From positions 24,331 through 88,330 of the forward strand of contig CANOBK010000003.1 of NCBI GenBank assembly GCA_947564265.1: a DNA stretch of 64,000 bases. Direction: 5' to 3'. The translations under genes and the position numbers were made by a program. Positions 5,219 through 59,818 of the stretch are shown here, piece after piece; the stretch's first letter is position 1; each line of letters opens with the position of its first letter. A model generated the notes under the pieces. That model searched no databases, was not told the DNA's origin, and worked only from the letters and a program-made list of their open reading frames with translations. The DNA is from an uncultured Bacillales bacterium (GTDB taxonomy: Bacteria; Bacillota_I; Bacilli_A; RF39; UBA660).

Positions 5219-5674
5219 CTATTTGTGATATCTTTCATTATTTTGTATTTTAAAACTACGATAGATTTGTTCTAGAAGTAGCACTCTAAATAGTTGATGA
5301 GGGAAGGTTAATTTTGAGAACGATATTTTCTCATTGGCTAGTTTCTTTAAATCTGGGTGAATTCCACAAGAACCCCCGATTAAAAAAGTAATCTCGCTAT
5401 TTTCAATTCTTAAATGATCTAGTTTTTCTGATAATTCTGTAGAGGAAAGCATCTGCCCTTCAATCTCTAATGTTATTAGATAATCTTTTGGCCGAAGGTA
5501 TTTTTCAATCCTCTCTTTTTCTTTTTGAAGAGCGATTTTTTCTTCATCTATTTTTTCATCCATAATTTCAATAACTTCTATTTTTGTATATTTTTGTAGA
5601 CGCTTTAAGTACTCTTGACAAGCATCTTGTAGATATTTTTCTTTTAGTTTCCCAACACAAATTATTCGAATCAT
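5219..5674 (-). CDS. rlmH: 23S rRNA (pseudouridine1915-N3)-methyltransferase RlmH
   Basis: 151 aa. MIRIICVGKLKEKYL.. N-terminus and SPOUT C-terminus ..FLIGGSCGIHPDL..SFSKLTFPHQLFRVLLLEQIYR. Confidence 0.9.
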   Translation of the reverse strand: MIRIICVGKLKEKYLQDACQEYLKRLQKYTKIEVIEIMDEKIDEEKIALQKEKERIEKYLRPKDYLITLEIEGQMLSSTELSEKLDHLRIENSEITFLIGGSCGIHPDLKKLANEKISFSKLTFPHQLFRVLLLEQIYRSFKIQNNERYHK

Positions 5675-5675
5675 T

Positions 5676-6434
5676 TTATACCTCTACCGTTTCTAAAGAC
5701 TCATGAGGCTTCGCTATTAGAATGTCTCTTTCGTTTATTTTTTCTTTTAACACATCTCTTGTCGTTTGATAGGCGAGTTCTTCGGTGTTATTTTTTTCAC
5801 TTAAATGCGCTAGTATAATATACTTGGTGTTGTCACCAACTAAGTTTTTAAGATATCCCGCAACAGTCGTATTGGATAAGTGCCCTTTATCACTGATAAT
5901 TCTTTGCTTTAGGATATAAGGGTAAGGACCATTCATTAACATTTTCTCATCATGATTACTTTCGATGATGTAAATTTCTTTATTCTCTAACTGTTTCAAG
6001 TATTTTCGATTGATATATCCCGTATCGGTGATATACACTAGAGAACTCTCTCTACTTTGAATTAGATACCCTACCGATTCTACATCATGAGAAGTGGGAA
6101 TGCATTCGACACTTAAATCTTCTATGTTATTTTTGGAAGATAGAATGCGAAGATTCGTACTTGGAACTTTTTCTATTATTTCTGGAATCATTCCTTCTGT
6201 AATATAGACCAAAAGATTTGTCTTTTTCACTAGAGATTGTAGTCCCTTAATATGGTCACTGTGTGTATGGGTAATCAGAACCCCATCTAAATCATTTGGT
6301 ACTACGGATATTTTTTCTAATTCTTGACTCAGATAAGAAAAGGTAACCCCAATATCAATTAAAAGTTTTACCTTCTCTGTTTCAATATAGGTAGAGTTTC
6401 CTTTCGAACCACTTGCTAGCACTTTTATTTTCAT
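5676..6434 (-). CDS. MBL-fold metallo-hydrolase, YycJ/WalJ-like
   Basis: Starts MKIKVLASGSKGNSTYIE (ATG 6432-6434) and carries the HTHSDH metal motif. The ATG overlaps the upstream TGA (ATGA, 6431-6434). The longer ORF-track start at 6488 has no support. Confidence 0.85.
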   Translation of the reverse strand: MKIKVLASGSKGNSTYIETEKVKLLIDIGVTFSYLSQELEKISVVPNDLDGVLITHTHSDHIKGLQSLVKKTNLLVYITEGMIPEIIEKVPSTNLRILSSKNNIEDLSVECIPTSHDVESVGYLIQSRESSLVYITDTGYINRKYLKQLENKEIYIIESNHDEKMLMNGPYPYILKQRIISDKGHLSNTTVAGYLKNLVGDNTKYIILAHLSEKNNTEELAYQTTRDVLKEKINERDILIAKPHESLETVEV

Positions 6435-7981
6435 CGATATAGACTCCTTGGGTTTAGTGGTGTACCTGTATAGGCAGGACCAGCCCATAATCCAAAGTGA
6501 AGGTGAACTCCCTGTGCATAACCTGTATTTCCCATTGTTCCAATTTGGTCATTTGCATATACGACATCACCTTTTTGCACATAACGTGCTGCTAGATGGG
6601 CATATTCTGTAAAGTAACCATTGGCATGCTTGATGACAATATAGTTACCATTTGTTGAATTATAAGCAGAGGTAACGACAATTCCATTATTAGCTGCTTT
6701 AATTGGAGAACCATATCCAGTACCTGTGATATCGATTGCTTTATGAAGTTTTCCCCAACGATAAGAGAATTCACTCGTTACAGTATATGGAGCATTTGTA
6801 GGCCATACCCAACTACCAATACCAACGGGAACATCGACACCAGAAGAAATACTTCCACCCCAAGATACTTGATATTTTCTTGTCCCACGAACTACTACTT
6901 TATTAACAGGAGCAATTGTAATTTCCTCTCCTACTGGTACTGTCGAAACGATTTCACCATTGATTAATTGAATTTTTTCAGTGACCAAACTTTCTCCATC
7001 GCTTCCTTCTTCTTTTACTCTCTCATATCCAGCATATTGAGTATTGTCATCTTCATAAACTGTTTCTCTTGCTTTTACTTTCTTGGAAACAACGTGTGTT
7101 TCTTCAACCGTATCAAACTGTGGTTGAATGATACCTAATGTTACAATTTTTCCTGGATATAGTAAATCGTTTACTGTTTTATAAGAAGTATTGGCGATTA
7201 AAAACTCATCTGGTGATAATTTATTATTGAAGGCAATATCTGCGATGGTATCTCCTTCTTTTACTACATAGGTTTCCTGATCTTCTATTGTTCCAAAAAG
7301 AAGATATTTACAAAGGTCTTCTTCTGTTAAAAAGATATTTGCATCTGCAGGAATTCTTGTTTTTGAAATCGTAATATCATTTTTAATGTACAAGTCTTCA
7401 ATTAAGGTTCCTGTCTCTACGATTTCTTCCTGTGTTTCATTCAGAAAGTTGTCATAATCCTCTTCTGGAATAAATGATTTAATTGTTTTTTCCACAGAAT
7501 TTGTGAATATTTCCTTCTCAAGTACGTAAATTATTTTATCTTCGGTTATTTCTGTTCCACCATCTTCTGTTGATTTTTCATACCCTGCGATTGTAATTTG
7601 ATATCCATCGATGGTAAAACTTTCTCCACCCTTTTGATTCTCTATTTTTTGATAGATTTCTTCTGTTGTATAAATTTCATCATCGTAGGTAATTTCTTGA
7701 ACAATATCTAGTCCGTTTGGAATATAGACTTTTTTTACGTTGTATTTTTCTTTAATTGTCCCTTGCTTTTCATCGATGTATTTTTCTAAGTCCTCTTTCG
7801 ATTCAATGAGTCCTAATGATTCTCCTCCTAAATAGACGTGATAAAGTTGTCTCGGCTGAGAACTTCTTTCCATAATTCCTAGAATTTTTGCAGGAGTTGC
7901 ATTAGGATTTGATCCCATATAAATAATTCCCATGGATAATATCCCAGCAATTACTGAGAATATGATTGTTTTTTTATCCAT
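6431..7981 (-). CDS. membrane-anchored M23 peptidoglycan metalloendopeptidase with LysM and G5 domains
   Basis: TM anchor, ~240 aa unknown region, LysM (YVVKEGDTIADIAFNNKLSPDEFLIAN..), G5 (..VKEEGSDGESLVTEKIQLINGEIV..) and C-terminal M23 (..HKAIDI..GNYIVIKH..GYAQGVHLHFG). Start set to ATG 7979-7981 (MDKKT..), which is preceded by AAGGTGGA. The ORF-track start at 7999 lacks an RBS. Confidence 0.85.
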   Translation of the reverse strand: MDKKTIIFSVIAGILSMGIIYMGSNPNATPAKILGIMERSSQPRQLYHVYLGGESLGLIESKEDLEKYIDEKQGTIKEKYNVKKVYIPNGLDIVQEITYDDEIYTTEEIYQKIENQKGGESFTIDGYQITIAGYEKSTEDGGTEITEDKIIYVLEKEIFTNSVEKTIKSFIPEEDYDNFLNETQEEIVETGTLIEDLYIKNDITISKTRIPADANIFLTEEDLCKYLLFGTIEDQETYVVKEGDTIADIAFNNKLSPDEFLIANTSYKTVNDLLYPGKIVTLGIIQPQFDTVEETHVVSKKVKARETVYEDDNTQYAGYERVKEEGSDGESLVTEKIQLINGEIVSTVPVGEEITIAPVNKVVVRGTRKYQVSWGGSISSGVDVPVGIGSWVWPTNAPYTVTSEFSYRWGKLHKAIDITGTGYGSPIKAANNGIVVTSAYNSTNGNYIVIKHANGYFTEYAHLAARYVQKGDVVYANDQIGTMGNTGYAQGVHLHFGLWAGPAYTGTPLNPRSLYR

Positions 7982-22370: not shown

Positions 22371-23264
22371 CTAATTTTTATAACCAATCATTTCTAATAA
22401 TCGGTTTAAATCATTCGTATTTACAAATGAAATTTCTACTTTATTATTTTTTATTTTTACTTTCGTTCCTAATTTGTCTGATAATTCTTCTTCAATTACT
22501 TTATATTCATTAGATGTCGTTTCACGCTTTTTGATTTTATTTTTTCTTTCATAGAGGCTATCATCTGAAATATTTTCGATTTGTCTTACGCTTAGGTTTT
22601 CTGTTTCGATTCTTTCAGCTAGTTCTTTAATTTTATCGGTATCTTTCATTTTGCTTAAGACTCTTGCATGACTCATTGAGATTTTGTCATCCATAATCAT
22701 ATCTTTTACTTCTTCTGGTAAGTTTAAAATTCCTAACATGTTAGTAATGTGGCTTCTACTTTTCCCTAATCTTTGTGCTAACTCTTCTTGTGTAATCGTA
22801 AGTTCTTCAATCAGTTTTCGATAAGCCATTGCTTCTTCTACTGCATTTAAATTTTCTCTTTGGAGGTTTTCTAATAGTGCAATTTCCATCATCTCTGAGT
22901 CACTAAAGTCACGAATAATCGCAGGAATTGTCTCTTTACCAGCAAGTTTTGATGCTTTTACACGGCGTTCACCAGCGATAATTTCATATCCTTTAATGCT
23001 TTTTTTAACAATAATTGGTTGAAATACTCCATGTTCCTTAATGGAACTAGCCAATTCTTGTAATGCCTTTTCATCAAAGTTCTTTCTAGGCTGATAAGGG
23101 TTACTTCTTAATTCTGAGATTTCTATTTCTTGAATTTCTTCTTTTGGCGTTAAATCGATGATTCTTTCTTCTAAACTTTCATAATTCATTGGTTCATTAT
23201 TAAATAATTCTTCTAATCCTCTTCCAAGGGCTTTTCTTCTATTGTTCTCTCTTTGTGCTTCCAT
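22371..23264 (-). CDS. parB: chromosome partitioning protein ParB/Spo0J
   Basis: ALGRGLEELF, CTP-binding IIAGERRVKASK, HTH ..LGKSRSHITNMLGIL..ISMSHARVL. The start is ambiguous: ATG at 23264 is used here, and the ORF-track TTG at 23273 is also possible. Confidence 0.9.
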   Translation of the reverse strand: MEAQRENNRRKALGRGLEELFNNEPMNYESLEERIIDLTPKEEIQEIEISELRSNPYQPRKNFDEKALQELASSIKEHGVFQPIIVKKSIKGYEIIAGERRVKASKLAGKETIPAIIRDFSDSEMMEIALLENLQRENLNAVEEAMAYRKLIEELTITQEELAQRLGKSRSHITNMLGILNLPEEVKDMIMDDKISMSHARVLSKMKDTDKIKELAERIETENLSVRQIENISDDSLYERKNKIKKRETTSNEYKVIEEELSDKLGTKVKIKNNKVEISFVNTNDLNRLLEMIGYKN

Positions 23265-24039
23265 TTCTTTCAATCACTTCCTTTGCTAAGTTTAAGTAAG
23301 CTATTGTACCTCGATGTTTTGGATCATATTCTATAATTGGAGTTCCATGAGATGGTGCTTCTGCGATTCTAACTAATCTTGGAATAATTGTATTGTACAC
23401 TCTCTCTTTAAAGAAACGACGAATATCTTCTACTACTTCCAAGCATAAAATAGCTCTAGAATCAAGCATTGTTAAAAGGACTCCCTCGATATCTAAGTTT
23501 GGATTTAGATTCTTTTGAGCAAGCATAATTGTATTTAGTAATTGCGTAATTCCTTCTAGAGCAAAGAATTCGCATTGTACAGGTATAATTACTGAGTTTG
23601 AAGCGGTTAAAGCATTCGTTGTAATTAATCCCAAAGATGGTGGACAATCGATTATGATAAAATCAAAAATGTCTTTAATTGGGTCAATTCCTTGTTTTAA
23701 TTGGGTATTTTTTGAGAAATTTTGTTGTGATTTACTTTTTTCCATTAATTCAATATCTACTCCTGCTAGATTAATTGTAGCTGGTAAAAGATACAAGTTT
23801 TTGAATTTAGTACGTAGAATTGATTCTTGTGCTGAACATTTTCCTGTCATGACATCATGAATGCTTTTGGTGATATCCCCTTTATTTACTCCAACACCCG
23901 TTGTTGCATTTCCTTGTGGATCTAAATCAATCAATAATACTTTTTTCCCTAAATGTGCTAAAGAGGCAGAAAGATTAATACTTGTTGTTGTTTTTCCTAC
24001 GCCACCTTTTTGATTTACTAATGAAATTATCTTTCCCAT
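23239..24039 (-). CDS. parA: chromosome partitioning ATPase ParA/Soj
   Basis: 266 aa. Deviant Walker A NQKGGVGKTTT, ..IIIDCPPSLG.. Confidence 0.95.
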   Translation of the reverse strand: MGKIISLVNQKGGVGKTTTSINLSASLAHLGKKVLLIDLDPQGNATTGVGVNKGDITKSIHDVMTGKCSAQESILRTKFKNLYLLPATINLAGVDIELMEKSKSQQNFSKNTQLKQGIDPIKDIFDFIIIDCPPSLGLITTNALTASNSVIIPVQCEFFALEGITQLLNTIMLAQKNLNPNLDIEGVLLTMLDSRAILCLEVVEDIRRFFKERVYNTIIPRLVRIAEAPSHGTPIIEYDPKHRGTIAYLNLAKEVIERNGSTKREQ

Positions 24040-24143: not shown

Positions 24144-25235
24144 TTAAATGTCTTTATCAATTTTTACGACGATTTGATAGCTCTTTTCAAAATCCATTTC
24201 TTCGATTTTTATTACAAAACCTTTATTTCTTACTGACTCTGCACTTTTACGAATTGTTGAAACTGCATCTCTCAAAGAAAATAATTCTTCATCTCCTAAT
24301 AGTTCTTCAATTGTAGGTCGCTTTTGCCCAGACGAATTTCCTACTGGACCTGTTAAATTATTAGGTTTTGTTTCTTCTACTGGTATTTTAGGCTTTAATT
24401 CTATAATACTTTGAGAGTCAATCTCTCCTCTTAAATTTTCAATTGAATTTTCTGGTTTTTCTAAATCCATGTTATGTTCAAAATGATAAGAATTAGTAGG
24501 ATCTGAACTAAAATCTGTCATTTTTGTTATCGGTTGGGATTGTGACATTTCATTCCCATTGTTTCCTATTTCTAAATTTTCTTCTCCTAAACCAATTTGA
24601 TTCTCCATTTGATTCGATGGATCTGAAATATATCTTTGAGGCGGAACACCTTTGATTCTAGCATCTAGTTCTCGAACTGTCATTCTTTTATCAATAATTT
24701 CTTGTAACATTGCAATTTGCTCTTCTGGATTTTTTAAATTTAATAAACTCCTTGCATGACGTTCAGAAATTTTGTCTTCTAATAATGCCTCTTGTACTTC
24801 ATCTGGTAATGATAAAAGACGCATTTTATTAGCAATAGACGCTTGGCTTTTTCCCATAGTTCTTCCAAGTTCTTCTTGGGTCATATCATCTAGTTCGATA
24901 ATTTTTTGATAAGTTCTTGCTTCTTCAATTGGAGTTAAATCTTTTCTTTGAAGATTTTCTAATAATGCTACTTTTGAAGTTTCTTTATCATCTAAATTCC
25001 GAATAATTGCTGGAATTTTAGTTAACCCAGCCATTGCTGATGCTTTATATCTTCTTTCTCCCGCAATGATTTCATATTTATCACCAATTTTACGAACGAT
25101 AATTGGTTGAATTACTCCATGTGCTTTAATTGAATCTGCTAATTCTCTTAAAGCCTCTTCATTAAACACTTCACGTGGTTGGAAACGGTTAGGGATAATA
25201 TCATCTAAATATAAATCTACTACTTCTCTATCCAT
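24144..25235 (-). CDS. noc: nucleoid occlusion protein Noc (ParB paralogue), atypical architecture
   Basis: 363 aa in the position between rsmG and parA. IPNRFQPR, IIAGERRYKASA. The HTH GKSQASIANKMRLL..ISERHARSL resembles B. subtilis Noc (GQSTIANKLRLL..ITERHAR) rather than Spo0J. The C-terminus ..AVSTIRKSAESVRNKGFVIKIEEMDFEKSYQIVVKI.. is also Noc-like. Confidence 0.85.
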   Translation of the reverse strand: MDREVVDLYLDDIIPNRFQPREVFNEEALRELADSIKAHGVIQPIIVRKIGDKYEIIAGERRYKASAMAGLTKIPAIIRNLDDKETSKVALLENLQRKDLTPIEEARTYQKIIELDDMTQEELGRTMGKSQASIANKMRLLSLPDEVQEALLEDKISERHARSLLNLKNPEEQIAMLQEIIDKRMTVRELDARIKGVPPQRYISDPSNQMENQIGLGEENLEIGNNGNEMSQSQPITKMTDFSSDPTNSYHFEHNMDLEKPENSIENLRGEIDSQSIIELKPKIPVEETKPNNLTGPVGNSSGQKRPTIEELLGDEELFSLRDAVSTIRKSAESVRNKGFVIKIEEMDFEKSYQIVVKIDKDI

Positions 25236-25385: not shown

Positions 25386-26072
25386 TTATTTTATCTTGTT
25401 TCTAGGATATATTTTACTGGTTATTTTTTGTTTTTGAATTTTGATTAAGCTTCGATTACTTTCTTCGATTGGAAGTATGAATTCGCAAATTGTTTCGATA
25501 TTACCACCTAAGTTTTTGATGATTGGAGTTGCCTCTTCTAATTCCTCTTTAGCATTTGCTTTCATGGCGATAAAATATCCTTTTTCTTTTACCATAGGAA
25601 TACATAGTTCAGATAATACTTTTAGGTTAGCAACTGCCCTTGCAGTAACGATTTCATATTCTTCTCTATGTTTTCTTGCATAATCTTCGGCTCTTGTATG
25701 AATTGCTTCAATATCATCTAATCTTAATTGTTTTATAATTTCATTTAGGTAGTTTACTCTTTTTAGAAGGGAATCGATTAAGATTATTTTTAGGTTTGGA
25801 AATATTATTTTTAAAACGATTCCTGGAAATCCAGCCCCACTTCCTACATCACATAAGGTTTGAACTTTTGTTAAATCTATTACTTTAGATATTGTTAGAC
25901 TATCATAAAAGTGTTTTAAATAGACTTCTTCTTTTTCTGTAATTCTCGTTAGATTCATTTTTTCGTTCCAATCAATCAGGAGATAATAAAATTCTTCTAA
26001 TTGTTGAACTTGATTTTCTGTTAAAGAAATTCCTAATTTTTTTGTTTCTTCTATAAAACGTTCTTGATTCAT
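25386..26072 (-). CDS. rsmG: 16S rRNA (guanine527-N7)-methyltransferase RsmG
   Basis: 228 aa. SAM motif ..LCDVGSGAGFPGIVLKI.., overlaps the mnmG stop. Confidence 0.93.
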   Translation of the reverse strand: MNQERFIEETKKLGISLTENQVQQLEEFYYLLIDWNEKMNLTRITEKEEVYLKHFYDSLTISKVIDLTKVQTLCDVGSGAGFPGIVLKIIFPNLKIILIDSLLKRVNYLNEIIKQLRLDDIEAIHTRAEDYARKHREEYEIVTARAVANLKVLSELCIPMVKEKGYFIAMKANAKEELEEATPIIKNLGGNIETICEFILPIEESNRSLIKIQKQKITSKIYPRNKIK

Positions 26073-27928
26073 ATTTTCTTTTCCTTTTTTAAATATACCA
26101 TTAGAATTGAGATATCAGCGGGATTTACTCCACTAATACGCGATGCTTGAGCAATAGTCGTTGGTCTAATATCTGAAAGTTTCTGTCTTGCTTCACTAGC
26201 TAGATTGTGAATGTTATCATAGTTGATTTCTTCTGGTATTTTTATTTTTTCCAAATCGAGCATTTTTTCCGCTTCTCGATTGGCTTTTTTAATGTATCCT
26301 TCGTATTTTGCCTGAATTTCTACTTGTTCTTTTATTTCTTCTGATTCTTTAATTTCGATCCAATGCTTTAGTGTTTCTACTTTAATTTCTGGTCGTTTTA
26401 ATAGATCATAAAGGGTAATTCCATCTAGTAGTTTGGTAGAATTTATTTCTTCTAAATACTGATTGTTTTCTTTTGTAGGCGTTACTTTTTTCTTTTTCAA
26501 TAATTCTGTCAAAGATTCTATTTGCCTTTTTTTCTCTTGAAATTTTTGATAACTTTCTTCTGTCACAAGACCTACTTGATATCCATATTCTTTTAATCTT
26601 AAATCCGCATTATCATGACGTAATAATAATCGATATTCTGCTCGTGAGGTAAGCATACGGTATGGCTCTTTTGTTCCTTTCGTAACTAAGTCATCAATTA
26701 ATACCCCAATATATGCTTCATTTCTTTTTAATATTAAAGGTTCTTGATTATGAATTTTACGAGAGGCATTGATTCCTGCAATTAAACCTTGACCTGCTGC
26801 TTCTTCATAACCGCTTGTTCCATTAATTTGTCCTGCTGTAAATAGATTTTCAAGAACTTTTGTTTCAAGTGACTGTTTTAATTGTAATGGATCAATTGCA
26901 TCATACTCTATCGCATAAGCATATTTCAGTATTTTCGCATTCTCTAAACCAGGTAAAGAATGAACCATTTTGTCTTGAATTTCTTCGGGCATACTTGTTG
27001 AAAAACCTTGAATGTAGATATCATCATAATAACGACTCTCTGGTTCTAAGAATAATTGATGCCTTTCTTTATCTTTAAATCTTACAACTTTGTCTTCGAT
27101 TGATGGACAATACCTAGGACCAACTCCTTCTACATAACCACCATACATACTAGATTTTTCTAGGTTATCCATAATAATTTGATGTGTTTCTTTTGTTGTA
27201 TAGATTAAATAACATGGTACTTGATCTTCTATTTTATACTGTGGCTCGTTATCAAAAGAAAAGGTATAGAGTGTTTCATCTCCAGGTTCTAAACTTGCTT
27301 TTGTATAATCAATACTATTTTTATCAATTCTCTGTGGCGTTCCTGTCTTTAGTCTTTGAATACGAAAGCCATATTCCTTTAATTTTTCACTTAAGTATTT
27401 TGAAGGTTTCTCTCCATGAGGACCACTTTCTGTTTTTTTATCCCCTCGAAGTATTACAGCTTTTAAATAGGTTCCTGTTGTTAGAATGACTGATTCTGAT
27501 TCAATCTTTTCTCCCGTTTCTAAAATAATTCCCTTTATTTTATTATTTTCAACAATTAGATCTTCGACAATGGATTCTTTGATTTCTAAATTTTCTTGAT
27601 TTTGAATTGTTTTTAACATTTCTTGTGGATAAGTAATTTTATCACCTTGTGCACGCAGGGCCCGAACTGCTGGGCCTTTTTTTGTATTCAACATTTTTAC
27701 TTGTAAGCAACTGTGATCAATGTTGTTTGCCATTTCTCCACCTAAGGCATCTATTTCTCTTACAATAATTCCTTTAGCTGGTCCTCCAATCGATGGATTA
27801 CATGGCATATCCGCAATATTTTTTATATTTCCCGTTACTAATAAGGTTTTATTTCCAAGTCGAGCAGAAGCTAAGCATGCTTCACATCCTGCATGCCCTC
27901 CACCTACTACGATAATGTCATACTTCAT
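26069..27928 (-). CDS. mnmG: tRNA uridine 5-carboxymethylaminomethyl modification enzyme MnmG
   Basis: 619 aa. FAD motif YDIIVVGGGHAGCEA, ..GQINGTSGYEEAAGQGL.. Confidence 0.97.
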   Translation of the reverse strand: MKYDIIVVGGGHAGCEACLASARLGNKTLLVTGNIKNIADMPCNPSIGGPAKGIIVREIDALGGEMANNIDHSCLQVKMLNTKKGPAVRALRAQGDKITYPQEMLKTIQNQENLEIKESIVEDLIVENNKIKGIILETGEKIESESVILTTGTYLKAVILRGDKKTESGPHGEKPSKYLSEKLKEYGFRIQRLKTGTPQRIDKNSIDYTKASLEPGDETLYTFSFDNEPQYKIEDQVPCYLIYTTKETHQIIMDNLEKSSMYGGYVEGVGPRYCPSIEDKVVRFKDKERHQLFLEPESRYYDDIYIQGFSTSMPEEIQDKMVHSLPGLENAKILKYAYAIEYDAIDPLQLKQSLETKVLENLFTAGQINGTSGYEEAAGQGLIAGINASRKIHNQEPLILKRNEAYIGVLIDDLVTKGTKEPYRMLTSRAEYRLLLRHDNADLRLKEYGYQVGLVTEESYQKFQEKKRQIESLTELLKKKKVTPTKENNQYLEEINSTKLLDGITLYDLLKRPEIKVETLKHWIEIKESEEIKEQVEIQAKYEGYIKKANREAEKMLDLEKIKIPEEINYDNIHNLASEARQKLSDIRPTTIAQASRISGVNPADISILMVYLKKEKKI

Positions 27929-28010: not shown

Positions 28011-28034
28011 AAATTATTTCCCGGGAAATAATTT
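28011..28034. promoter_or_regulatory. Noc-binding site (NBS) palindrome, copy 1
   Basis: AAATTATTTCCCGGGAAATAATTT is a perfect palindrome. Its core TATTTCCCGGGAAATA (28015-28030) equals the published B. subtilis NBS consensus. It is intergenic and flanked by A- and T-runs. Confidence 0.75.
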
Positions 28035-28149: not shown

Positions 28150-28770
28150 TCATTTTTTTAATAAAACTACAGGTTTTTCTTTTGTAATTTGATAAGCAAT
28201 CTTAATATCCCTTTGTTCTTCTATTTTTCCTATTATATAACTGAAATTAGTACATGATCTTATATGCCTAATAGCTTGATCCATAGAATCATTAAATTTT
28301 TTTAGGAGTTTTTTTTGTTTGTAATTTGAAAGCTCAACAAATTGTTTCATCATGATTTCATCAATTTCTTCTATGGATGCATTAATGATTCTCTCCCTAC
28401 TTTTCGATAAACAACCATCATTATAGGTATATTGCTTTTCTATAATTTTCCCTTCTTTATCAAATTTTGAATGAAGCATAATATGTTGTTTCTTTTCTAC
28501 ATCAAGGCGTGTTGTTATTTCTTCTATTAAAAAATCCTGTTCATCAAAAATCATAATAAATAATACTGGGTAAGGTTCAAATGGAGCACGAAAGTGAATT
28601 CTAATAATTTGATGATTGATTTTTACATCAATTTTTGTATCCCTAAACACTATACTTTCCCATTTGGATAAAATGATGGGACTTTGACTTTCTAAATCCT
28701 TTAAATATGTTAATACTGGTTCTATTTCGATTAATTCTTTATTTCTCTTTTTTAAAGATTCTATAATCAT
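28150..28770 (-). CDS. hypothetical protein (206 aa) between mnmE and mnmG
   Basis: Long ORF starting 9 nt after the mnmE stop. No recognised domain. Confidence 0.7.
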   Translation of the reverse strand: MIIESLKKRNKELIEIEPVLTYLKDLESQSPIILSKWESIVFRDTKIDVKINHQIIRIHFRAPFEPYPVLFIMIFDEQDFLIEEITTRLDVEKKQHIMLHSKFDKEGKIIEKQYTYNDGCLSKSRERIINASIEEIDEIMMKQFVELSNYKQKKLLKKFNDSMDQAIRHIRSCTNFSYIIGKIEEQRDIKIAYQITKEKPVVLLKK

Positions 28771-32085: not shown

Positions 32086-32113
32086 AATACTCACCATTCT
32101 TGTATTATAGTAT

Positions 32114-32139
32114 TTAAAAAAACCACTACTTTAGTGGTC
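32114..32139 (-). terminator. hairpin plus T-run between rpmH and rnpA (probable partial terminator)
   Basis: Stem ACCACTA (32122-32128) / TAGTGGT (32132-32138) with a 3-nt loop. A T-run follows on the - strand. Confidence 0.4.
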
Positions 32140-32142
32140 TAT

Positions 32143-32265
32143 TTATTTAGATAGTCTTTTACGACCTTTTGCTCTACGTCTATTTAAAACTTTTGATTTC
32201 ATACGTGCGAAAAAACCATGCTTCTTTTTCATTTTTCTATTATTTGGTTGATAAGTTCTCTTCAT
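32143..32265 (-). CDS. rpmH: 50S ribosomal protein L34
   Basis: Hand translation of the - strand gives [53 protein letters not shown] lies upstream. It is below the 60-aa cutoff of the ORF track. Confidence 0.93.
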
Positions 32266-32295
32266 AATTCCACCTCCAGACATAAAATCTACATT

Positions 32296-32324
32296 AGTAT
32301 AATAAACCTACCATATTTTGTCAA
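32296..32324 (-). promoter_or_regulatory. sigmaA-type promoter of rpmH-rnpA operon
   Basis: On the - strand: TTGACA (32319-32324), 17-nt spacer, TATACT (32296-32301). Confidence 0.6.
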
Positions 32325-32393
32325 TGTTTTTTCTACAATTTATTTTTTATATTTTGTCTATAGAATGTTTTTAAAATGATTCATTTTTATAGA

Positions 32394-32581
32394 TTTTCCA
32401 CACTTTGCACAGCATGTTCATAATTTTTTTCACATAGTGAATTGTTTTTTTTCACAAAATTGTTGATAAATTCATAATTTCTTTATATAGTAAGGATATA
32501 AGTTGTGGAAAAGCATGTGGATAGATTGTGAATTAGCTGTGGATACATATTTTTTTAATTTTTTTACTTTATTTTTCCACA
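32394..32581. promoter_or_regulatory. oriC upstream DnaA-box cluster (rpmH-dnaA intergenic)
   Basis: Five 8/9 matches to TTATCCACA: TTTTCCACA 32394-32402, TGTGGAAAA 32504-32512, TGTGGATAG 32516-32524, TGTGGATAC 32538-32546, TTTTCCACA 32573-32581. Weaker TTTTTCACA copies lie near 32426 and 32447. Confidence 0.85.
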
Positions 32582-32633
32582 CATTTAAGTTACAATAGGT
32601 CTTGCAATTTACGATTTAGAGGGGGCGCGGTAT

Positions 32634-35425: not shown

Positions 35426-35869
35426 GTGGAAAATTATGAAGTAGGTGTCAATACCTTAGCTGTAGTTGGAATGGGGCGTAAAAGGGCTAAAATCGTCGAA
35501 TCCGAGGGTGATTTATTGGTAAACTTTCCAGCTTATGAAGTTATGGATCATAGTTGTTGTTACTATGGAAGTAGCTATTCTGGGAGAACACAAGGTAGTA
35601 AGGAAATTCTAAAATGTGAATATAAGCTTCCTATTATTGTGGAAGAAACAAAGGAACTTATCTTTTTTCCAACTCAATCTCCAAGTACTGATGCATGTAT
35701 TTGGCTATCTTTAGGAAATATCGATTATGTAGAAGGAAATCATAAGCAATGTACTATTGTATTTAAAAATGGAAAAAATTTAACTATTTTTCGTTCAAAA
35801 GATTCGATTGAAAATCAACTTTATAGGGCAACCAGACTAAAATATTTGTTATCTCAGCGAAAAAACTAA
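35426..35869 (+). CDS. comK: ComK family protein
   Basis: 147 aa, GTG start after a GGGGGA RBS. ..YEVGVNTLAV.., ..VMDHSCCYYGSSYSGRTQGS.., KLPIIV, LIFFPTQSPSTDACIW, FKNGKNL and ENQLYRATRL follow the B. subtilis ComK pattern (SC.FFGSSYAGR, K.PI.V, FPT.S...C.W, F.NGK, ENQVYR). Confidence 0.8.
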   Translation: MENYEVGVNTLAVVGMGRKRAKIVESEGDLLVNFPAYEVMDHSCCYYGSSYSGRTQGSKEILKCEYKLPIIVEETKELIFFPTQSPSTDACIWLSLGNIDYVEGNHKQCTIVFKNGKNLTIFRSKDSIENQLYRATRLKYLLSQRKN

Positions 35870-39065: not shown

Positions 39066-41735
39066 ATGGATAATAATAGAGAAGATTTAGATGAATTATT
39101 AAATAGAGCAGAAATGGAAGACAATGAGTCAGGTGATTCAGAAGAGACTTCAGGTGGAGAAAATAATAGTTTAGCTAGCAGTAGTACTGAGAGTAATAAT
39201 AACGGTTTTAGTGGTTATTTTCATGAAAGAGATCGATTAGATCATAATAACATTGTTGATGAAGTAAAAACTTCATTTATGGAATATTCCATGAGTGTTA
39301 TCGCATCTCGTGCACTACCTGATTTAAGGGATGGTTTAAAGCCTGTTCATAGACGTATCCTTTGGTCTATGTTTGAATCTGGTTATACTCCTGATAAACC
39401 TCATAGAAAATGTGCAACAACGGTTGGATATGTAATGGGTCATTATCACCCACATGGAGATTCTTCAATCTATGAAGCAATGGTACGTTTAGCACAAGAT
39501 TTCAACCAAAGATATATGTTGGTTGATGGTCACGGAAACTTTGGTAATATTGAAGGAGACGGAGCTGCAGCAATGCGTTATACCGAATCAAGACTTGCCA
39601 AAATTTCTTTAGAGTTGTTAAGGGATATTAATAAAAATACTGTTGATATGGATGATAACTTCGATGTTACAATGAAGGAACCTAAAGTATTACCTTCTAG
39701 ATTCCCAAATGTTTTAGTAAATGGATCGATGGGAATTGCTGTTGGTATGGCTACGAATATTCCACCTCACAATTTAGGTGAAGTAATCGATGGATGTATC
39801 GCTTATATTGATAATCCTGAGATTGATACGATGGGCTTGATGGAATATATTAAGGGACCTGATTTTCCAACAGGTGGTATTATTTTAGGAAATTCTGGAA
39901 TTAAGAAAGCTTTTGAAACAGGTAGGGGAAGTATTACTATTCGAAGTAAGGCTGTGATTGAAGAGGTTGGAAATCATAGTAATATTGTGATTACTGAAGT
40001 TCCATATGGTGTAAATACAATGGAACTTAAGAATAAGGTTGCCGAACTTGTACATAATAAAGTAATTGAAGGAATCGCAGATTATCATACAGATTTAAAA
40101 GACGGAGTTAAGATTACAATTACTTTGAAGAAAGATGCAAATGCTCAAGTTGTATTAAATAACTTATATAAGCATACGAACTTTCAAATAAATTATGGAA
40201 TTATTTTCTTAGTACTTGATGGACAAACTCCAAGAACTCTTGGATTAAAGGATATTATTAGTAAATACATTGATCATCAAAAAGAAGTAATTATTAGAAG
40301 AACTAGATATGATTTAAATAAAGCGGAAGAAAGAGTACATATTTTAGAAGGTTTACGTATTGCCTTAGATAATATCGATGAAGTAGTTCGTATTATTAGA
40401 GCTGCTGATAGTGATGAAGAAGCTAGAAATAATTTGATGTCTAGATTCCAGTTAGATGAGATTCAAGCAAATAGTATTCTTGAAATGAGATTACGTAGAT
40501 TAACTGGTTTGGAGCGTAGTAAGGTCGAGAATGAATTAAATGACTTACTTGTTAAAATTGCAGATTATAAGGCCATTTTAGCCTCTGAACAACGAGTACT
40601 GGATATTATTAAGGAAGAAATGACAGAGATTAAGAAGAAATATGGTGATGATAGACGTACAAAAATTGATATGACAGCAATTGATTATATTGAAGATGAA
40701 TCTTTAATTCCTGTTGAAAACATTCTAATTACTCTTACAAATAAAGGATATATTAAGAGAATGTTAGTAGATACTTATCGTATTCAAAATCGTGGTGGTG
40801 TTGGTATTAAAGGTATGGCTACCAATGAAGAGGACTTTGTGGAAAAAATGCTAAATATGCAGACACATGATTATATTTTATTCTTTAGTAATAAAGGTAA
40901 AGTTTATCGTATGAAAGGATATGAAGTTCCAGAATATAGTCGTCAAAGTAAGGGGCTACCAATTATCAATCTATTACCTGTGGATAAAGATGAAAATATT
41001 AATTCAATCATTTGTTTGAATAAGGATGAAGAATATAAATATTTAACATTTATTACGAAAGATGGTATTGTTAAACGTACAAATTTAAGTGAGTTTGATA
41101 ATATCCGAAGCGGTGGAAAAATTGCTATTACTCTTAAGGAAGATGATGAACTAATATCTGTTCGTAAAACTACTGGTGAAAATGAAATTATTATTGGTGC
41201 TTCTAATGGTCGTATGGTACGTTTCATTGAAAACGAGATTCGTGTAATGGGTCGTACAGCATCTGGAGTTAAGGGAATAGAATTAAGTGGTGCTAAGGTT
41301 GTTGGTGGAGAAGTAATTAATAGTGATGAACAAGTATTAATTGTCACTGAAAAAGGTTATGGAAAGAAAACCCCAATTCAAGATTATAGATTAACGCACC
41401 GTGGTAGTAAGGGTGTTAAGGCATTGAATGTTACAGAGAAGAACGGAATGTTAGTTTCTTTAAAAGCTGTAACTGGTGATGAAGATTTAGTAATTATTAC
41501 TGATAGTGGAATTATCATGAGAATGTCTATGGATCAAATTTCAACTTTAGGTAGAGCAACTCAAGGTGTAAGATTAATTAAGTTGAAGGATGATCAGAAA
41601 GTGGCTACAGTAGCAACACTTATCAAAGAGGAAGAAACTGATGAAAAAATAGAAGTTCCTAATGTGGAGGAACACTCTATTATTGAAAACAATAATCAAG
41701 AAAATTTTAAATCTGATGATTCAGTAACTGATTAA
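39066..41735 (+). CDS. gyrA: DNA gyrase subunit A (with ~55-aa acidic/Ser-rich N-terminal extension)
   Basis: 889 aa. ..YSMSVIASRALPDLRDGLKPVHRRIL.., ..AAMRYTESRL.. (catalytic Tyr). GGGTGGTGA RBS lies before ATG 39066. Confidence 0.97.
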   Translation: MDNNREDLDELLNRAEMEDNESGDSEETSGGENNSLASSSTESNNNGFSGYFHERDRLDHNNIVDEVKTSFMEYSMSVIASRALPDLRDGLKPVHRRILWSMFESGYTPDKPHRKCATTVGYVMGHYHPHGDSSIYEAMVRLAQDFNQRYMLVDGHGNFGNIEGDGAAAMRYTESRLAKISLELLRDINKNTVDMDDNFDVTMKEPKVLPSRFPNVLVNGSMGIAVGMATNIPPHNLGEVIDGCIAYIDNPEIDTMGLMEYIKGPDFPTGGIILGNSGIKKAFETGRGSITIRSKAVIEEVGNHSNIVITEVPYGVNTMELKNKVAELVHNKVIEGIADYHTDLKDGVKITITLKKDANAQVVLNNLYKHTNFQINYGIIFLVLDGQTPRTLGLKDIISKYIDHQKEVIIRRTRYDLNKAEERVHILEGLRIALDNIDEVVRIIRAADSDEEARNNLMSRFQLDEIQANSILEMRLRRLTGLERSKVENELNDLLVKIADYKAILASEQRVLDIIKEEMTEIKKKYGDDRRTKIDMTAIDYIEDESLIPVENILITLTNKGYIKRMLVDTYRIQNRGGVGIKGMATNEEDFVEKMLNMQTHDYILFFSNKGKVYRMKGYEVPEYSRQSKGLPIINLLPVDKDENINSIICLNKDEEYKYLTFITKDGIVKRTNLSEFDNIRSGGKIAITLKEDDELISVRKTTGENEIIIGASNGRMVRFIENEIRVMGRTASGVKGIELSGAKVVGGEVINSDEQVLIVTEKGYGKKTPIQDYRLTHRGSKGVKALNVTEKNGMLVSLKAVTGDEDLVIITDSGIIMRMSMDQISTLGRATQGVRLIKLKDDQKVATVATLIKEEETDEKIEVPNVEEHSIIENNNQENFKSDDSVTD

Positions 41736-41752
41736 AATATCAATATAATAAG

Positions 41753-41779
41753 GACATTTCATTTAGAAGTGTCTTTTTT
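41753..41779 (+). terminator. rho-independent terminator after gyrA
   Basis: Stem GACATTTC (41753-41760) / GAAGTGTC (41766-41773, one G-U pair), followed by a T6 run. Confidence 0.6.
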
Positions 41780-41878
41780 AAATCAGTGAGTATGAGTATA
41801 TTTAAAAATTTAAATATGAAAATAATTATTCATGATTGAATGTAGGTTGTACTTAATATGAATTATATAAATTCAATA

Positions 41879-41912
41879 AAAAAAAACGACTATTAATTAG
41901 TCGTTTTTTTTT
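41879..41912. terminator. bidirectional rho-independent terminator
   Basis: A8 run, stem ACGACTA (41886-41892) / TAGTCGT (41898-41904), T9 run. It lies between the gyrA region and the convergent - strand ORF ending at 41919. Confidence 0.7.
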
Positions 41913-41918
41913 ATTCTA

Positions 41919-42200
41919 CTACATACGTCTTTCTACTTCTTGTTCTGATTGATTGTCAATATTTTCTATATTTTTTGCCATTTCTACTAAAGAAATTGAT
42001 TGCTCTGTTAAGTTTAACATTTCTTGAAAATTATCACTTAATATTTGACCAGTTACATCTAATTCCTTGACATCAAACATTAAACTAAAGATTGTTGCTT
42101 GTATTTCTTTTAACTTCTCAGCGGTTTGATTCATTTGTTTTTTTTCATCCATTTGATCCATCTGATTCATTATTTGATCCGTTTGGTCTATTTGATCCAT
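41919..42200 (-). CDS. hypothetical small acidic protein with MDQ/MNQ repeats (93 aa)
   Basis: Start set at ATG 42198-42200 (MDQIDQTDQIMNQMDQMDEKKQMNQ..), preceded by GAGGTGA. The C-terminal half is predicted helical. No recognised family. Confidence 0.55.
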   Translation of the reverse strand: MDQIDQTDQIMNQMDQMDEKKQMNQTAEKLKEIQATIFSLMFDVKELDVTGQILSDNFQEMLNLTEQSISLVEMAKNIENIDNQSEQEVERRM

Positions 42201-42374
42201 TTCATTCACCTCAGTTTTTATTATACTGTAACATATTGGAAAATTCAACATCTGTTTGAATTTTATATATATAAATATTGTTTAAATTTAATGAAGAAAA
42301 TGTAAATATCATATTAAATCATATTAGAAAAAATCATAACTATATTTATTTTAGTAATTATTTATTGTAAATAT

Positions 42375-42398
42375 AAATTATTTCCCGGGAAATAATTT
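42375..42398. promoter_or_regulatory. Noc-binding site (NBS) palindrome, copy 2
   Basis: Identical 24-mer AAATTATTTCCCGGGAAATAATTT, core 42379-42394. Confidence 0.75.
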
Positions 42399-42414
42399 AT
42401 AAATAATCTTTTAT

Positions 42415-42430
42415 AGTTTCACGTGAAACA
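42415..42430. promoter_or_regulatory. parS site (15/16)
   Basis: AGTTTCACGTGAAACA against the consensus TGTTTCACGTGAAACA. It begins 20 bp after the NBS copy 2 core. Confidence 0.8.
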
Positions 42431-42597
42431 TAGGTTCCTATATTTTAAAAATGTGAGTGTTATTAAGAAATTCTTATAGTATGTATAAGTTTTAAGTTAT
42501 TTTCACTACAAATTGACTAATTACTGTATAGTTTTAAATTTTTATAGTACCTATGAATTTATATGAAATTATGGTAAAATTATCTCGGTGGTTTAAT

Positions 42598-42945
42598 ATG
42601 AATTTATATGACAAATATTTTTTTTGTACTTTATTAACTATTATAATAACAAGAACATTTGTGTATTTGTTTAATAGACCTAGTCCAACCATAAAAGGTT
42701 TTAGGACGCATCACTGGATGTTTGGATTATTGTTATCAATCATACTTTTTTGTATATCAAGTTTTTATGTAAATATATATTTATTATCTATTAGTATGGG
42801 AATATTTTTAGATGAAATAGGATTTATTATAGTTCGAGGAAAAACTCATGAAGATAATTATAGTCCAAAATCTTTTATGATATTGATGTTTTTTATATTG
42901 CTTTTATTTATATTTAGAAAAAATATTGTTAATTTTTACTTATAA
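42598..42945 (+). CDS. hypothetical small membrane protein (115 aa)
   Basis: 3-4 predicted TM helices. Start set at the second ATGAATTTATATGA repeat (42598), which has a GGTGG RBS. Coding status is uncertain in this very AT-rich island. Confidence 0.4.
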   Translation: MNLYDKYFFCTLLTIIITRTFVYLFNRPSPTIKGFRTHHWMFGLLLSIILFCISSFYVNIYLLSISMGIFLDEIGFIIVRGKTHEDNYSPKSFMILMFFILLLFIFRKNIVNFYL

Positions 42946-43198
42946 TTATGAAAAATGTAAGTAGTATGTTTTAAAATTCAAAAAATAAAAATTTTATTTG
43001 CTACATGTTTCATACTACATAATAAGGGTAACATTGTATCTTATTATGACGAATACTTTAGTAACTATGTTACTAGTCTTGCCGATGGGTATATTTTATT
43101 ACTATGCCATTCATTATATTTTTTTTGAATATATTAGAACTTTCAAAAAAATTAATTATAGAAATTTACTACTGAAGGTAGAAATATAAGAAGTAATA

Positions 43199-43222
43199 AA
43201 ATTATTTCCCGGGAAATAATTT
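43199..43222. promoter_or_regulatory. Noc-binding site (NBS) palindrome, copy 3
   Basis: Identical 24-mer, core 43203-43218. Confidence 0.75.
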
Positions 43223-43258
43223 TAATAGAATATATAAAATAAACCTATTTTAACTAAA

Positions 43259-43274
43259 TGTTTCACGTGAAACA
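43259..43274. promoter_or_regulatory. parS site (16/16)
   Basis: TGTTTCACGTGAAACA is a perfect match to the palindromic parS consensus. It begins 40 bp after the NBS copy 3 core. Confidence 0.88.
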
Positions 43275-43317
43275 TAAAAAAGTATTGTTTTTTTGCATGA
43301 TTTATAATAAAATATAA

Positions 43318-43398
43318 ACGTGCAATAAATATTAATGGAACCAGGTCAGGATCGGAAGGTAGCAGCCTTAACATTTAATATTTATGTGCACTTTTTTT
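43318..43398 (+). ncRNA. ffs: signal recognition particle RNA, short 4.5S-like form
   Basis: CCAGGUCAGGAUCGGAAGGUAGCAGCC (43341-43367) matches the universal SRP domain IV (E. coli CCAGGUCAGGUCCGGAAGGAAGCAGCC) with a GGAA tetraloop. It is closed by a long A/U-rich helix (GTGCAATAAATATTAATG with CATTTAATATTTATGTGCAC) and followed by T7. It sits next to tadA/dnaX, like B. subtilis scr. Confidence 0.85.
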
Positions 43399-43413
43399 AT
43401 GGAAGTGATAAAT

Positions 43414-50575: not shown

Positions 50576-50599
50576 AAATTATTTCCCGGGAAATAATTT
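50576..50599. promoter_or_regulatory. Noc-binding site (NBS) palindrome, copy 4
   Basis: Identical 24-mer beginning 1 nt after the rsmI stop codon, core 50580-50595. Confidence 0.75.
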
Positions 50600-59106: not shown

Positions 59107-59335
59107 GAAAATGTTTTGAAGGAAAGAGTTATACGATTTCTATTAAAGAGAGTCTCGTTTGGTGAAAGAGATATAGAAAGACTATAATAGATGGTTCCAG
59201 AACAGATAAATCGATACTGTAGGTTTATACGTATTTTCCGCGTTAAGGAATCGAGTGGATAAATATTTAATTTATCAATTAAGGTGGTACCGCGATTTTT
59301 CGTCCTTATGGAAGAAAGATTGCTTTTTTTATTTT
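59107..59335 (+). promoter_or_regulatory. T-box riboswitch leader, probable Met (AUG) specifier
   Basis: Stem I with AGAGAG and GGUGAAAG distal motifs (59146-59170). Specifier loop ..AAUAG-AUG-G-UUCC with AUG at 59191-59193. T-box sequence AAUUAAGGUGGUACCGCG at 59277-59294. Terminator GCGAUUUUUC (59292-59301) / GAAAGAUUGC (59314-59323) plus U7. Confidence 0.85.
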
Positions 59336-59350: not shown

Positions 59351-59818
59351 ATGGAAAAGTATTATGTAATTCCAGTTATGGAGTCAGATATATTGATTCC
59401 ATGCGGAAGAGAAAAAAATATTTCAATTCGAGAATATGTAGAAAAGTATTATCCAAGATTAGCGCAATTAGAAAGAGAGAGATTGTCTATTATTTATAGT
59501 GGGGATTATAATGCACCATTTACTGGTGAGCAAAAAAGACAATTAGAAGAGAATGCTCTTAAAAAAAGAAGGATAGCAGAAGAATTAGGAATTCCATTAC
59601 GCATTTTAGCAATGGATGATGGAAAAGAAACCTATGAAGTTGGGACTCATTCAAGAATTCTTAGTAATAGCCAAGATTTTCTTGATTTTAGAGAACAACC
59701 TAGAAATATATTTTTAACTTACTATAATGGAGATTATATACAGAGAGTAAAAAAATTTATGAGAAGAAAAGATTTTATCGTTTTACAAGGTGGTTCCCAA
59801 AAAATAATAAGAAGGTGA
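59351..59818 (+). CDS. hypothetical protein (155 aa), first gene after the T-box leader
   Basis: ORF with a GGGGGT RBS. No recognised domain. Confidence 0.65.
   Translation: MEKYYVIPVMESDILIPCGREKNISIREYVEKYYPRLAQLERERLSIIYSGDYNAPFTGEQKRQLEENALKKRRIAEELGIPLRILAMDDGKETYEVGTHSRILSNSQDFLDFREQPRNIFLTYYNGDYIQRVKKFMRRKDFIVLQGGSQKIIRR

Follow-up and report, generated by a model that had tools for sequence, protein, structure and literature searches.

NBS and parS sites share an origin-proximal spacer in uncultured Bacilli that encode a Noc-like protein without the membrane-targeting helix

Among DNA clamps that depend on cytidine triphosphate (CTP), ParB and Noc have been studied best, and they have so far been treated apart: ParB as a protein of the centromere and Noc as a chromosome-wide membrane tether. 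Both nucleate on palindromes, bind CTP, close and slide, and other DNA-bound proteins block their sliding (Jalal 2021, PMC8429893). Here we describe an origin region in which the predicted loading sites of the two kinds of clamp, parS and the Noc-binding site (NBS), lie side by side in the spacer between gyrA and ffs, the gene for the small signal recognition particle (SRP) RNA. The sequence is a 64-kb stretch (hereafter, the window) of a metagenome-assembled contig from an uncultured Bacillales bacterium, which we analysed using an open reading frame (ORF) map together with Pfam, NCBIfam and Rfam family scans.

In the ParABS centromere, origin-proximal clusters of parS load ParB–CTP clamps and SMC (Jalal and Le 2020, PMC7333895; Jalal 2020, PMC7053999). 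The locus resembles this system in having consensus parS near oriC and in encoding a standard Spo0J and Soj nearby, but differs from it in that the cluster is shared with the predicted loading sites of a second, paralogous clamp, with tandem mixed units in many species of the clade. The second point of comparison is nucleoid occlusion by Noc at NBS in Bacillus subtilis and Staphylococcus aureus (Wu 2009; Adams 2015, PMC4331003; Jalal 2021, PMC8429893; Pang 2017, PMC5540599). The 16-bp NBS core is identical in the clade, and the clade protein is like Noc in its ParB_N and HTH_ParB domains, its GERR and ENLQR boxes, its residues Q173, K179 and R201 and the position of its gene between rsmG and soj–spo0J. 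It is unlike Noc in having no N-terminal membrane-targeting amphipathic helix, in carrying a 60–170-amino-acid acidic/polar linker ahead of the C-terminal domain, in having S and not K at position 184 and in scoring below the TIGR04285 cutoff; the NBS themselves are extended to a 24-bp palindrome, apparently concentrated at oriC and often interleaved with parS. Noc of S. aureus also controls replication initiation (Pang 2017, PMC5540599), a loose precedent for an origin-focused role.

Two further comparisons concern how neighbouring sites might influence a clamp. On plasmid RK2, the CTP-dependent, ParB-family sliding clamp KorB is held by a second protein, KorA, at a nearby operator (PMC11790492). 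The resemblance is one of possible working and not of membership: both may follow a two-site logic in which a clamp is governed from an adjacent specific site, whereas KorA is an unrelated repressor with gene silencing as its output and the partners in this clade are ParB-family paralogues, known here from sequence alone. For ParB, a tightly bound protein beside parS limits sliding, with bypass by dimer–dimer recruitment (PMC7053999, PMC9242446, PMC8299390). The published roadblocks are artificial (TetR, dCas9 or of the EcoRI type), whereas the one considered here would be natural, paralogous and itself a predicted clamp; a site-bound Noc-like dimer 5–40 bp away would impose the same roadblock physics as in published ParB spreading. 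The preliminary description of this DNA knew of no report of such paired sites, and we likewise found no description of NBS–parS dyads or arrays, or of a helix-less Noc subfamily, in the literature searched, the coverage of which was incomplete. Each component was known before; the novelty lies in how the sites are arranged and distributed in genomes, and in a protein variant that departs from Noc in one of the features that define it.

Two NBS–parS dyads and their predicted binding proteins

The spacer (41736–43310; 1,575 bp, 21% G+C) is flanked on the left by gyrA (39066–41735, plus strand) and bounded on the right by ffs (43311–43406, plus strand; RF00169, 59.7 bits), and contains both parS and two of the four NBS of the window. 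In the left dyad, a perfect 16-mer NBS core, TATTTCCCGGGAAATA (42379–42394), is followed after 20 bp by AGTTTCACGTGAAACA (42415–42430), which agrees with parS at 15 of 16 positions and has A instead of T at position 1, a variant that also occurs in three relatives (L005, L006 and L010). In the right dyad, a second perfect core (43203–43218) is followed after 40 bp by a perfect parS, TGTTTCACGTGAAACA (43259–43274; 16/16), which lies within an 18-bp palindrome, ATGTTTCACGTGAAACAT (43258–43275), 36 bp upstream of ffs. Gaps are counted from 16-mer to 16-mer, and NBS is on the oriC side in both dyads. Both cores are enclosed by the 24-bp palindrome AAATTATTTCCCGGGAAATAATTT (42375–42398 and 43199–43222), as are the other two NBS of the window, and these palindromes are predicted loading sites for a Noc-like clamp. 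The preliminary description had given the same coordinates, gaps and left-to-right order, and these proved exact on re-reading and by motif search. It had also placed the dyads 8–9 kb to the right of oriC, which is correct when measured from the dnaA–dnaN spacer; from the spacer upstream of dnaA (32098–32633) the distance is approximately 10–11 kb.

Perfect NBS 14-mers occur four times in the window (at 28016, 42380, 43204 and 50581), compared with about 0.0002 expected from base composition, and no parS-like site with three or fewer mismatches is present in the 64 kb besides the two in the spacer. With only four NBS in the window, the presence of one within 40 bp of each of the two parS is far from random window-wide placement. 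Judged by their sequences, the sites are very probably what they seem, that is, NBS and parS. A duplication origin for the pair of dyads was rejected: the motifs and their immediate flanks match, whereas the spacers and outer flanks differ. The remaining two NBS stand without a parS. One (28016–28029) lies between the start of mnmG (26069–27928, minus strand) and the next ORF (28150–28770), and L193 and L238 are examples of metagenome loci that also have an NBS between mnmG and mnmE. The other (50581–50594) begins 5 bp past the stop codon of rsmI (TP_methylase), a position that is kept in relatives (L002 at 20074, L004 at 20928, L005 at 20184, L008 at 20728 and L009 at 20265; also in L158 and L207).

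On the minus strand, in the gene order rsmG–noc–soj–spo0J, the window encodes a Noc-like ParB paralogue of 363 amino acids (24144–25235), a Soj/ParA ATPase assigned by family scans (23239–24039) and Spo0J/ParB (22371–23273), the last with an N-terminal KALGRGLEELF motif, GKSR and the ParB_N, HTH_ParB and ParB_C domains. The origin gene cluster (ORI cluster) has been described (PMC8136486). We numbered the specificity residues after Jalal et al. 2020 (PMC7383237), in which Q173 and R201 switch specificity, K or R at position 179 or 184 is a permissive requirement and the NBS-type set of Noc is Q173, K179, K184 and R201. At these four positions the Noc-like protein reads Q-K-S-R, which is of the NBS type, with K179 as the permissive residue; the same combination is present in 118 of 120 clusters of Noc-like homologues. 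Spo0J reads R-M-N-S, and its invariant R173 and small polar residue at 201 mark it as parS-specific. The CTP-binding boxes GERR and ENLQR are present in both proteins (IIAGERRYKAS and ALLENLQRKDL in the Noc-like protein). The claim of the preliminary description that the two motifs are loading sites of two paralogous ParB-family proteins is supported by these residues and boxes.

The Noc-like protein matches PF02195 (2e-35) and PF17762 (3e-34), and its best matches in the PDB are Noc structures (7ng0, 7nfu and 7ol9; 229 bits, compared with 188 bits for Spo0J structures). Against TIGR04285, the NCBIfam model for Noc, it scores 295.2 bits, under the cutoff of 315, with only profile positions 1–196 of 255 matched. 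Its N-terminus, MDREVVDLYLDDIIPNRFQPR, aligns from residue 27–28 of the Noc structures 7nfu and 7ol9, making it a natural 'N-delta-26'. Proteins of the clade begin with MD(R/K)EVV..IPNRFQPR and have no N-terminal amphipathic membrane-targeting helix; the PNRFQPR motif is at offset 14 in 115 of the 120 homologue clusters, and the helix is also absent in L190 and L193. In the window protein, an acidic/polar linker of approximately 115 amino acids precedes a Noc-like C-terminal end, and the variable linker sets the lengths of the homologues (286–381 amino acids). The amphipathic helix was present in every Noc homologue examined by Adams et al. 2015 (PMC4331003), and a helix-less Noc variant showed impaired nucleoid occlusion (Adams 2015, as summarised by Jalal 2021, PMC8429893). 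In its predicted DNA recognition the clade protein is like Noc, yet it lacks one of the features that define the family. Its homologues carry the generic NCBI name 'ParB/RepB/Spo0J family partition protein'; annotation pipelines call the clade proteins generic ParB, and a scan for motifs on the model of B. subtilis would mislead by suggesting nucleoid occlusion.

In a distant lineage with 34% G+C (L188), an NBS at 8332 lies directly upstream of the noc-like gene, between it and rsmG, which raises the possibility of autoregulation. The rsmG–noc spacer of the window has no NBS.

Distribution of the sites across related lineages

We compared the gyrA neighbourhoods of GyrA homologues with 80–94% identity, selected regardless of motifs, across eight lineages (the locus of L007 stops at gyrA). 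The gyrA–tadA spacer carries both NBS and parS in every one of these relatives, in fluid arrangements, and in seven of the eight lineages it contains an NBS and a parS 5–22 bp apart. With gaps in bp, the spacers read parS ... NBS-18-parS (L004); two parS, NBS-13-parS and two parS (L005); two NBS-13-parS dyads and four other parS (L009); parS-12-NBS and NBS-12-parS inside 300 bp (L010); NBS-22-parS (L011); an NBS with a degenerate parS at a distance of 5 bp (L008); and NBS, NBS, parS, parS (L002). A parS is located within 25 bp of 8 of 13 NBS in these relatives, compared with 2.3 expected from random placement in the spacer, a contrast that is optimistic given that the lineages share ancestry. 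The ffs-proximal parS is kept in position, at 137–164 bp from the tadA start in seven of the eight lineages and at 57 bp in L011, in which the tadA ORF is called longer. When eight dyads are aligned, conservation is confined to the two motifs. The NBS-first polarity of close relatives (7 versus 1) probably reflects shared ancestry.

An exact-pattern scan for ATTTCCCGGGAAAT-N(5–35)-GTTTCACGTGAAAC, with one genome per species, found the pairing in at least 120 species. Of the 120 matches listed, 119 lie between gyrA and tadA/dnaX (tblastn with the window proteins). GyrA identity to the window is 56–87% among the matches listed, and no classical Bacillus, Staphylococcus or Listeria label appears among them. 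Logos built across more than 100 species extend both motifs, to AAAW-TATTTCCCGGGAAATA-WTTT for NBS (353 copies) and A-TGTTTCACGTGAAACA-T for parS (470 copies). Clusters hold 2–9 parS copies, within a few kb to approximately 10 kb of oriC. Between gyrA and tadA/dnaX, the sites can form tandem arrays of up to 13 copies of a 75–120-bp unit with one NBS and one parS, at 92–95% identity. Examples are an 83-bp unit repeated 13.2 times at 95% identity (L104, 4442–5534) and a 75-bp unit repeated 8.8 times (L070, 7095–7754); regular alternating arrays also occur in L046, L055, L013, L015, L063, L071, L054, L131, L138, L169 and L179.

A metagenome scan with the extended NBS alone, which has no bias towards pairing, returned 120 loci, of which approximately 105 have genes of the oriC neighbourhood (rsmG through mnmG, mnmE, jag, dnaA, gyrA, tadA and dnaX to mfd). 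NBS recur at the junctions mnmG|mnmE, mnmE|jag, recF|gyrB and rsmI|pth and also inside dnaX, and all four NBS of the window are within 18 kb of oriC. Because an even genome-wide spread would put only a small minority of the matches in this neighbourhood, NBS of the clade appear to be concentrated around oriC, which suggests, for the loci sampled, an origin-restricted set and not a chromosome-wide one. In B. subtilis and S. aureus, by comparison, NBS are spread over the half to two thirds of the chromosome that lies nearest the origin (Pang 2017, PMC5540599). In an unbiased set of 18 dereplicated complete gyrA–dnaX intervals, both site kinds are present in 11. Tight NBS–parS dyads are common in the clade and not obligatory. 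Apart from the intergenic sites, parS- or NBS-like sites occur inside the dnaX coding sequence of L005 (15274), L009 (15356) and L011 (14402–14417 and 14508–14521, 90 bp apart).

Spacing of the sites and possible functions

The co-clustering of NBS and parS at the gyrA–ffs locus is probably a selected trait of the clade. Whether tight adjacency adds anything to dense packing was assessed by shuffling site labels over fixed positions in 41 clusters from a sample that is unbiased for parS. Gaps of up to 15 bp were heterotypic, that is, between an NBS and a parS, in 28 of 30 cases (16.9 expected) and gaps of up to 25 bp in 45 of 53 (29.2 expected); none of 5,000 shuffles was as high at either threshold. 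Arrays inflate these gap counts; in a per-cluster test that counts every cluster once, the smallest gap was heterotypic in 33 of 47 clusters (25.4 expected, p = 0.015). Pairs of parS less than 17 bp apart are nearly absent and NBS–parS pairs at 6–13 bp are frequent, with no pair of any kind closer than 4–6 bp.

The heterotypic gaps may also be phased. In a set of species-level loci with uniform ascertainment over gaps of 3–33 bp, peaks are found at 9–11, 19–22 and 29–33 bp and troughs at 14 and 25–28 bp, with a best period of 10.5–11.5 bp (Rayleigh p about 1e-9). Dereplication of dyads by spacer sequence is uninformative, as short A/T-rich spacers merge by chance, and locus nucleotide identity was used instead; the periodicity persists when loci are clustered at 80% identity (93 clusters, scan-corrected p < 0.0002). 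Periodicity among homotypic pairs was not significant. The centre-to-centre distances of approximately 26, 36 and 47 bp correspond to n+0.5 helical turns, and the gaps of 20 and 40 bp in the window are on phase. Such spacing would set the two dimers on opposite faces of the helix, which we regard as suggestive only.

We propose that the gyrA–ffs spacer of this uncultured, low-G+C lineage of gut Bacilli is a composite, centromere-like cluster that loads both ParB/Spo0J, at parS, and the Noc-derived ParB paralogue, at NBS, a proposal to which we give even chances. Spo0J and the helix-less Noc-like protein would each nucleate as a homodimer on their own palindrome and, once CTP is bound, close into a sliding clamp, and the two populations would share one origin-proximal nucleoprotein domain across the centromere spacer. 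An occupied site 5–40 bp away would be a barrier or backstop for the clamp of its neighbour, and paired sites would bring both proteins into one nucleoprotein complex. ParB and Noc-like clamps may be insulated from one another or may collide. The sequences show which sites are present, that the specificity residues match them, that the helix is missing, and the synteny, recurrence, arrays and heterotypic bias of short gaps; that the two proteins behave as CTP clamps, occupy the spacer together and hinder one another or co-assemble is predicted. The juxtaposition itself would be favoured, and easily multiplied as a tandem unit, without being obligatory; the case for tight adjacency being functional in its own right is close to evenly poised, leaning slightly to the negative. 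Because the Noc paralogue has no membrane helix and its sites appear to cluster no more than a few tens of kb from oriC, it most likely acts with ParB on the origin/centromere domain and not as a membrane tether along the whole chromosome.

A bolder version, which we put forward tentatively and think less than even in its chances, is that a Noc descendant, which either took on a new role or never was brought to the membrane, serves here as a second clamp at the centromere, with stereospecific loading next to ParB. With site centres near n+0.5 turns (approximately 26, 36, 47 and 57 bp), the dyad would form a natural unit of two clamps: the dimer bound at either site would direct or retain the sliding clamps of the other, and selection would amplify this unit into arrays. 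The clade departs from what is known in three respects: the membrane anchor of its Noc paralogue was lost or never there, the sites appear to be concentrated at the origin, and parS lie interspersed among them, in many cases as regular arrays. It would show a different use of the Noc paralogue, and it bears on the origin of Noc from ParB. The dyads (gaps of 6–40 bp) and the 75–84-bp arrays are natural substrates for studying how two sliding clamps collide, block one another or co-assemble.

Several observations weigh against a functional reading of the adjacency, and most are as expected if the co-location were incidental. Under that explanation both proteins load, their sites accumulate in the one large dispensable spacer that compact genomes have near oriC, tandem duplication copies whatever the spacer contains, and the adjacency has no function. 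In the window, the closeness of parS and NBS is partly due to one large non-coding spacer housing both site kinds, and two of the four NBS are unpaired. Most sites are likewise unpaired in the NBS-anchored loci, in which a parS lies within 50 bp of 27%, and within 100 bp of 37%, of 235 NBS and an NBS lies within 50 bp of 35% of parS. In the unbiased gyrA–dnaX intervals, a tight pair (33 bp or less) is present in only 3 of 18 and a pair within 60 bp in 6 of 18; the closest NBS–parS distance in L002 is 74 bp; and in 13 complete metagenome spacers, gaps of up to 25 bp were no commoner than under random placement (4 observed, 7.5 expected). A fixed spacing and a fixed order had to be rejected, as gaps range over 5–41 bp in close relatives and from 4 to more than 60 bp clade-wide, and 56 dyads are NBS-first and 44 parS-first across the clade. 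The test proposed in the preliminary description, whether pairing and spacing are conserved, is positive for the recurrence of the pairing (in seven of the eight lineages chosen by GyrA and in at least 120 species) and negative for spacing; of the two signs of coincidence that it had named, many NBS and parS are indeed unpaired, but dyads are present in close relatives. Homotypic tight runs exist as well (P-21-P-21-P in L120 and N-10-N in L136, P being parS and N being NBS). The periodicity is lost when loci are collapsed at 75% by single linkage and is not seen in 38 gaps from small unbiased sets, and the p-values are optimistic because the sequences are phylogenetically related. What an incidental origin does not account for is the strong heterotypic bias of short gaps under label shuffling, the near absence of parS–parS pairs below 17 bp where NBS–parS pairs at 6–13 bp are common, the periodic gap histogram and the fact that amplified units nearly always hold one site of each kind. 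We consider it rather unlikely, while taking it seriously.

The preliminary description had also suggested that the dyads could tie the ParB/SMC-loading region to the membrane; canonical Noc would then load at NBS and tether the region, or exert nucleoid occlusion from there. By its position the gene is the orthologue of noc (rsmG–noc–soj–spo0J), its closest structural relatives are Noc proteins and its specificity residues are of the NBS type, all of which fit this suggestion. Membrane tethering is nevertheless improbable because the targeting helix is missing, and it is missing clade-wide; the protein also falls under the NCBIfam cutoff for Noc, and the NBS appear to keep to the oriC neighbourhood, unlike those of B. 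subtilis and S. aureus. It is far less probable still that the CCCGGG palindromes are not Noc sites at all but terminator hairpins, sites for a different regulator or sequences connected with restriction, which would make their pairing meaningless for clamps. Several copies do lie just past stop codons (for example, at 50581, 5 bp after rsmI) and could fold as A/U-rich hairpins followed by T runs. However, the 16/16 identity to the NBS core of B. subtilis and S. aureus holds in 353 copies from more than 100 species, a cognate Q-K-x-R paralogue is encoded nearby and copies also occur within the dnaX coding sequence; the terminator version was rejected, as a terminator scan did not call these palindromes. 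Compared with these alternatives, shared loading of the spacer by Spo0J and the Noc-like protein remains the reading that we prefer.

Gene neighbourhood and minor observations

The origin region of the window has a classical Bacillota layout. The minus strand carries spo0J, soj, the Noc-like gene, rsmG, mnmG, mnmE, jag, yidC and rnpA; the plus strand carries dnaA (from 32634), dnaN, a ComK-family gene, recF, gyrB and gyrA, which are followed by the 1,575-bp dyad spacer and, to its right, by ffs, tadA, dnaX, ybaB, recR and onward to mfd. Within the spacer, a perfect 18-bp inverted repeat that A/T runs flank on either side (41875–41915) resembles a bidirectional terminator hairpin after gyrA. 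The preliminary description had noted an AT-rich stretch with doubtful ORFs between the dyads, and we agree: the inter-dyad DNA measures 772 bp and has 21% G+C, compared with 30% window-wide, and it contains a putative hydrophobic ORF of 130 amino acids (42553–42945, plus strand) and a small putative ORF of 63 amino acids (42998–43189, plus strand). A further small putative ORF, of 110 amino acids (41919–42251, minus strand), lies to the left of the dyads. None of the three has a family match, or a tblastn homologue in approximately 240 related loci. The minus-strand ORF contains an imperfect 48-nt tandem repeat (42125–42220), with a promoter-like site at 42248–42220 and the hairpin at 41875–41915 downstream, and the ENA record calls a 93-amino-acid gene for it.

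The labels that relatives carry include 'uncultured Bacilli bacterium', Candidatus (Allo)scybalousia and Clostridium sp. CAG:710. Seven metagenome-assembled genome records (L017, L020, L037, L038, L049, L062 and L082) show a Bacilli-type origin region under Muribaculaceae, Mycoplasma or Tenericutes labels and are probably mislabelled or mis-binned. There is also a homonym at NCBI, where Candidatus Scybalousia is filed in Bacteroidales; the Bacilli genus is now Candidatus Alloscybalousia.

The ComK-family gene (35426–35869, plus strand) is located between dnaN and recF throughout the clade, with PF06338 in the called genes of relatives, among which it is the sole gene at this position. In L007, an IS605 OrfB/TnpB-type gene (5491–6633; GCA_017472015.1) lies between the ComK-like gene and recF. 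A BofA-family gene between recR and holB in L004 (16910–17095), L005 (16758–16943) and other relatives hints that the lineage keeps sporulation-related genes. Further to the right in the window, a T-box leader (59107–59310, plus strand; RF00230, 112 bits) lies upstream of the ORF at 59351.

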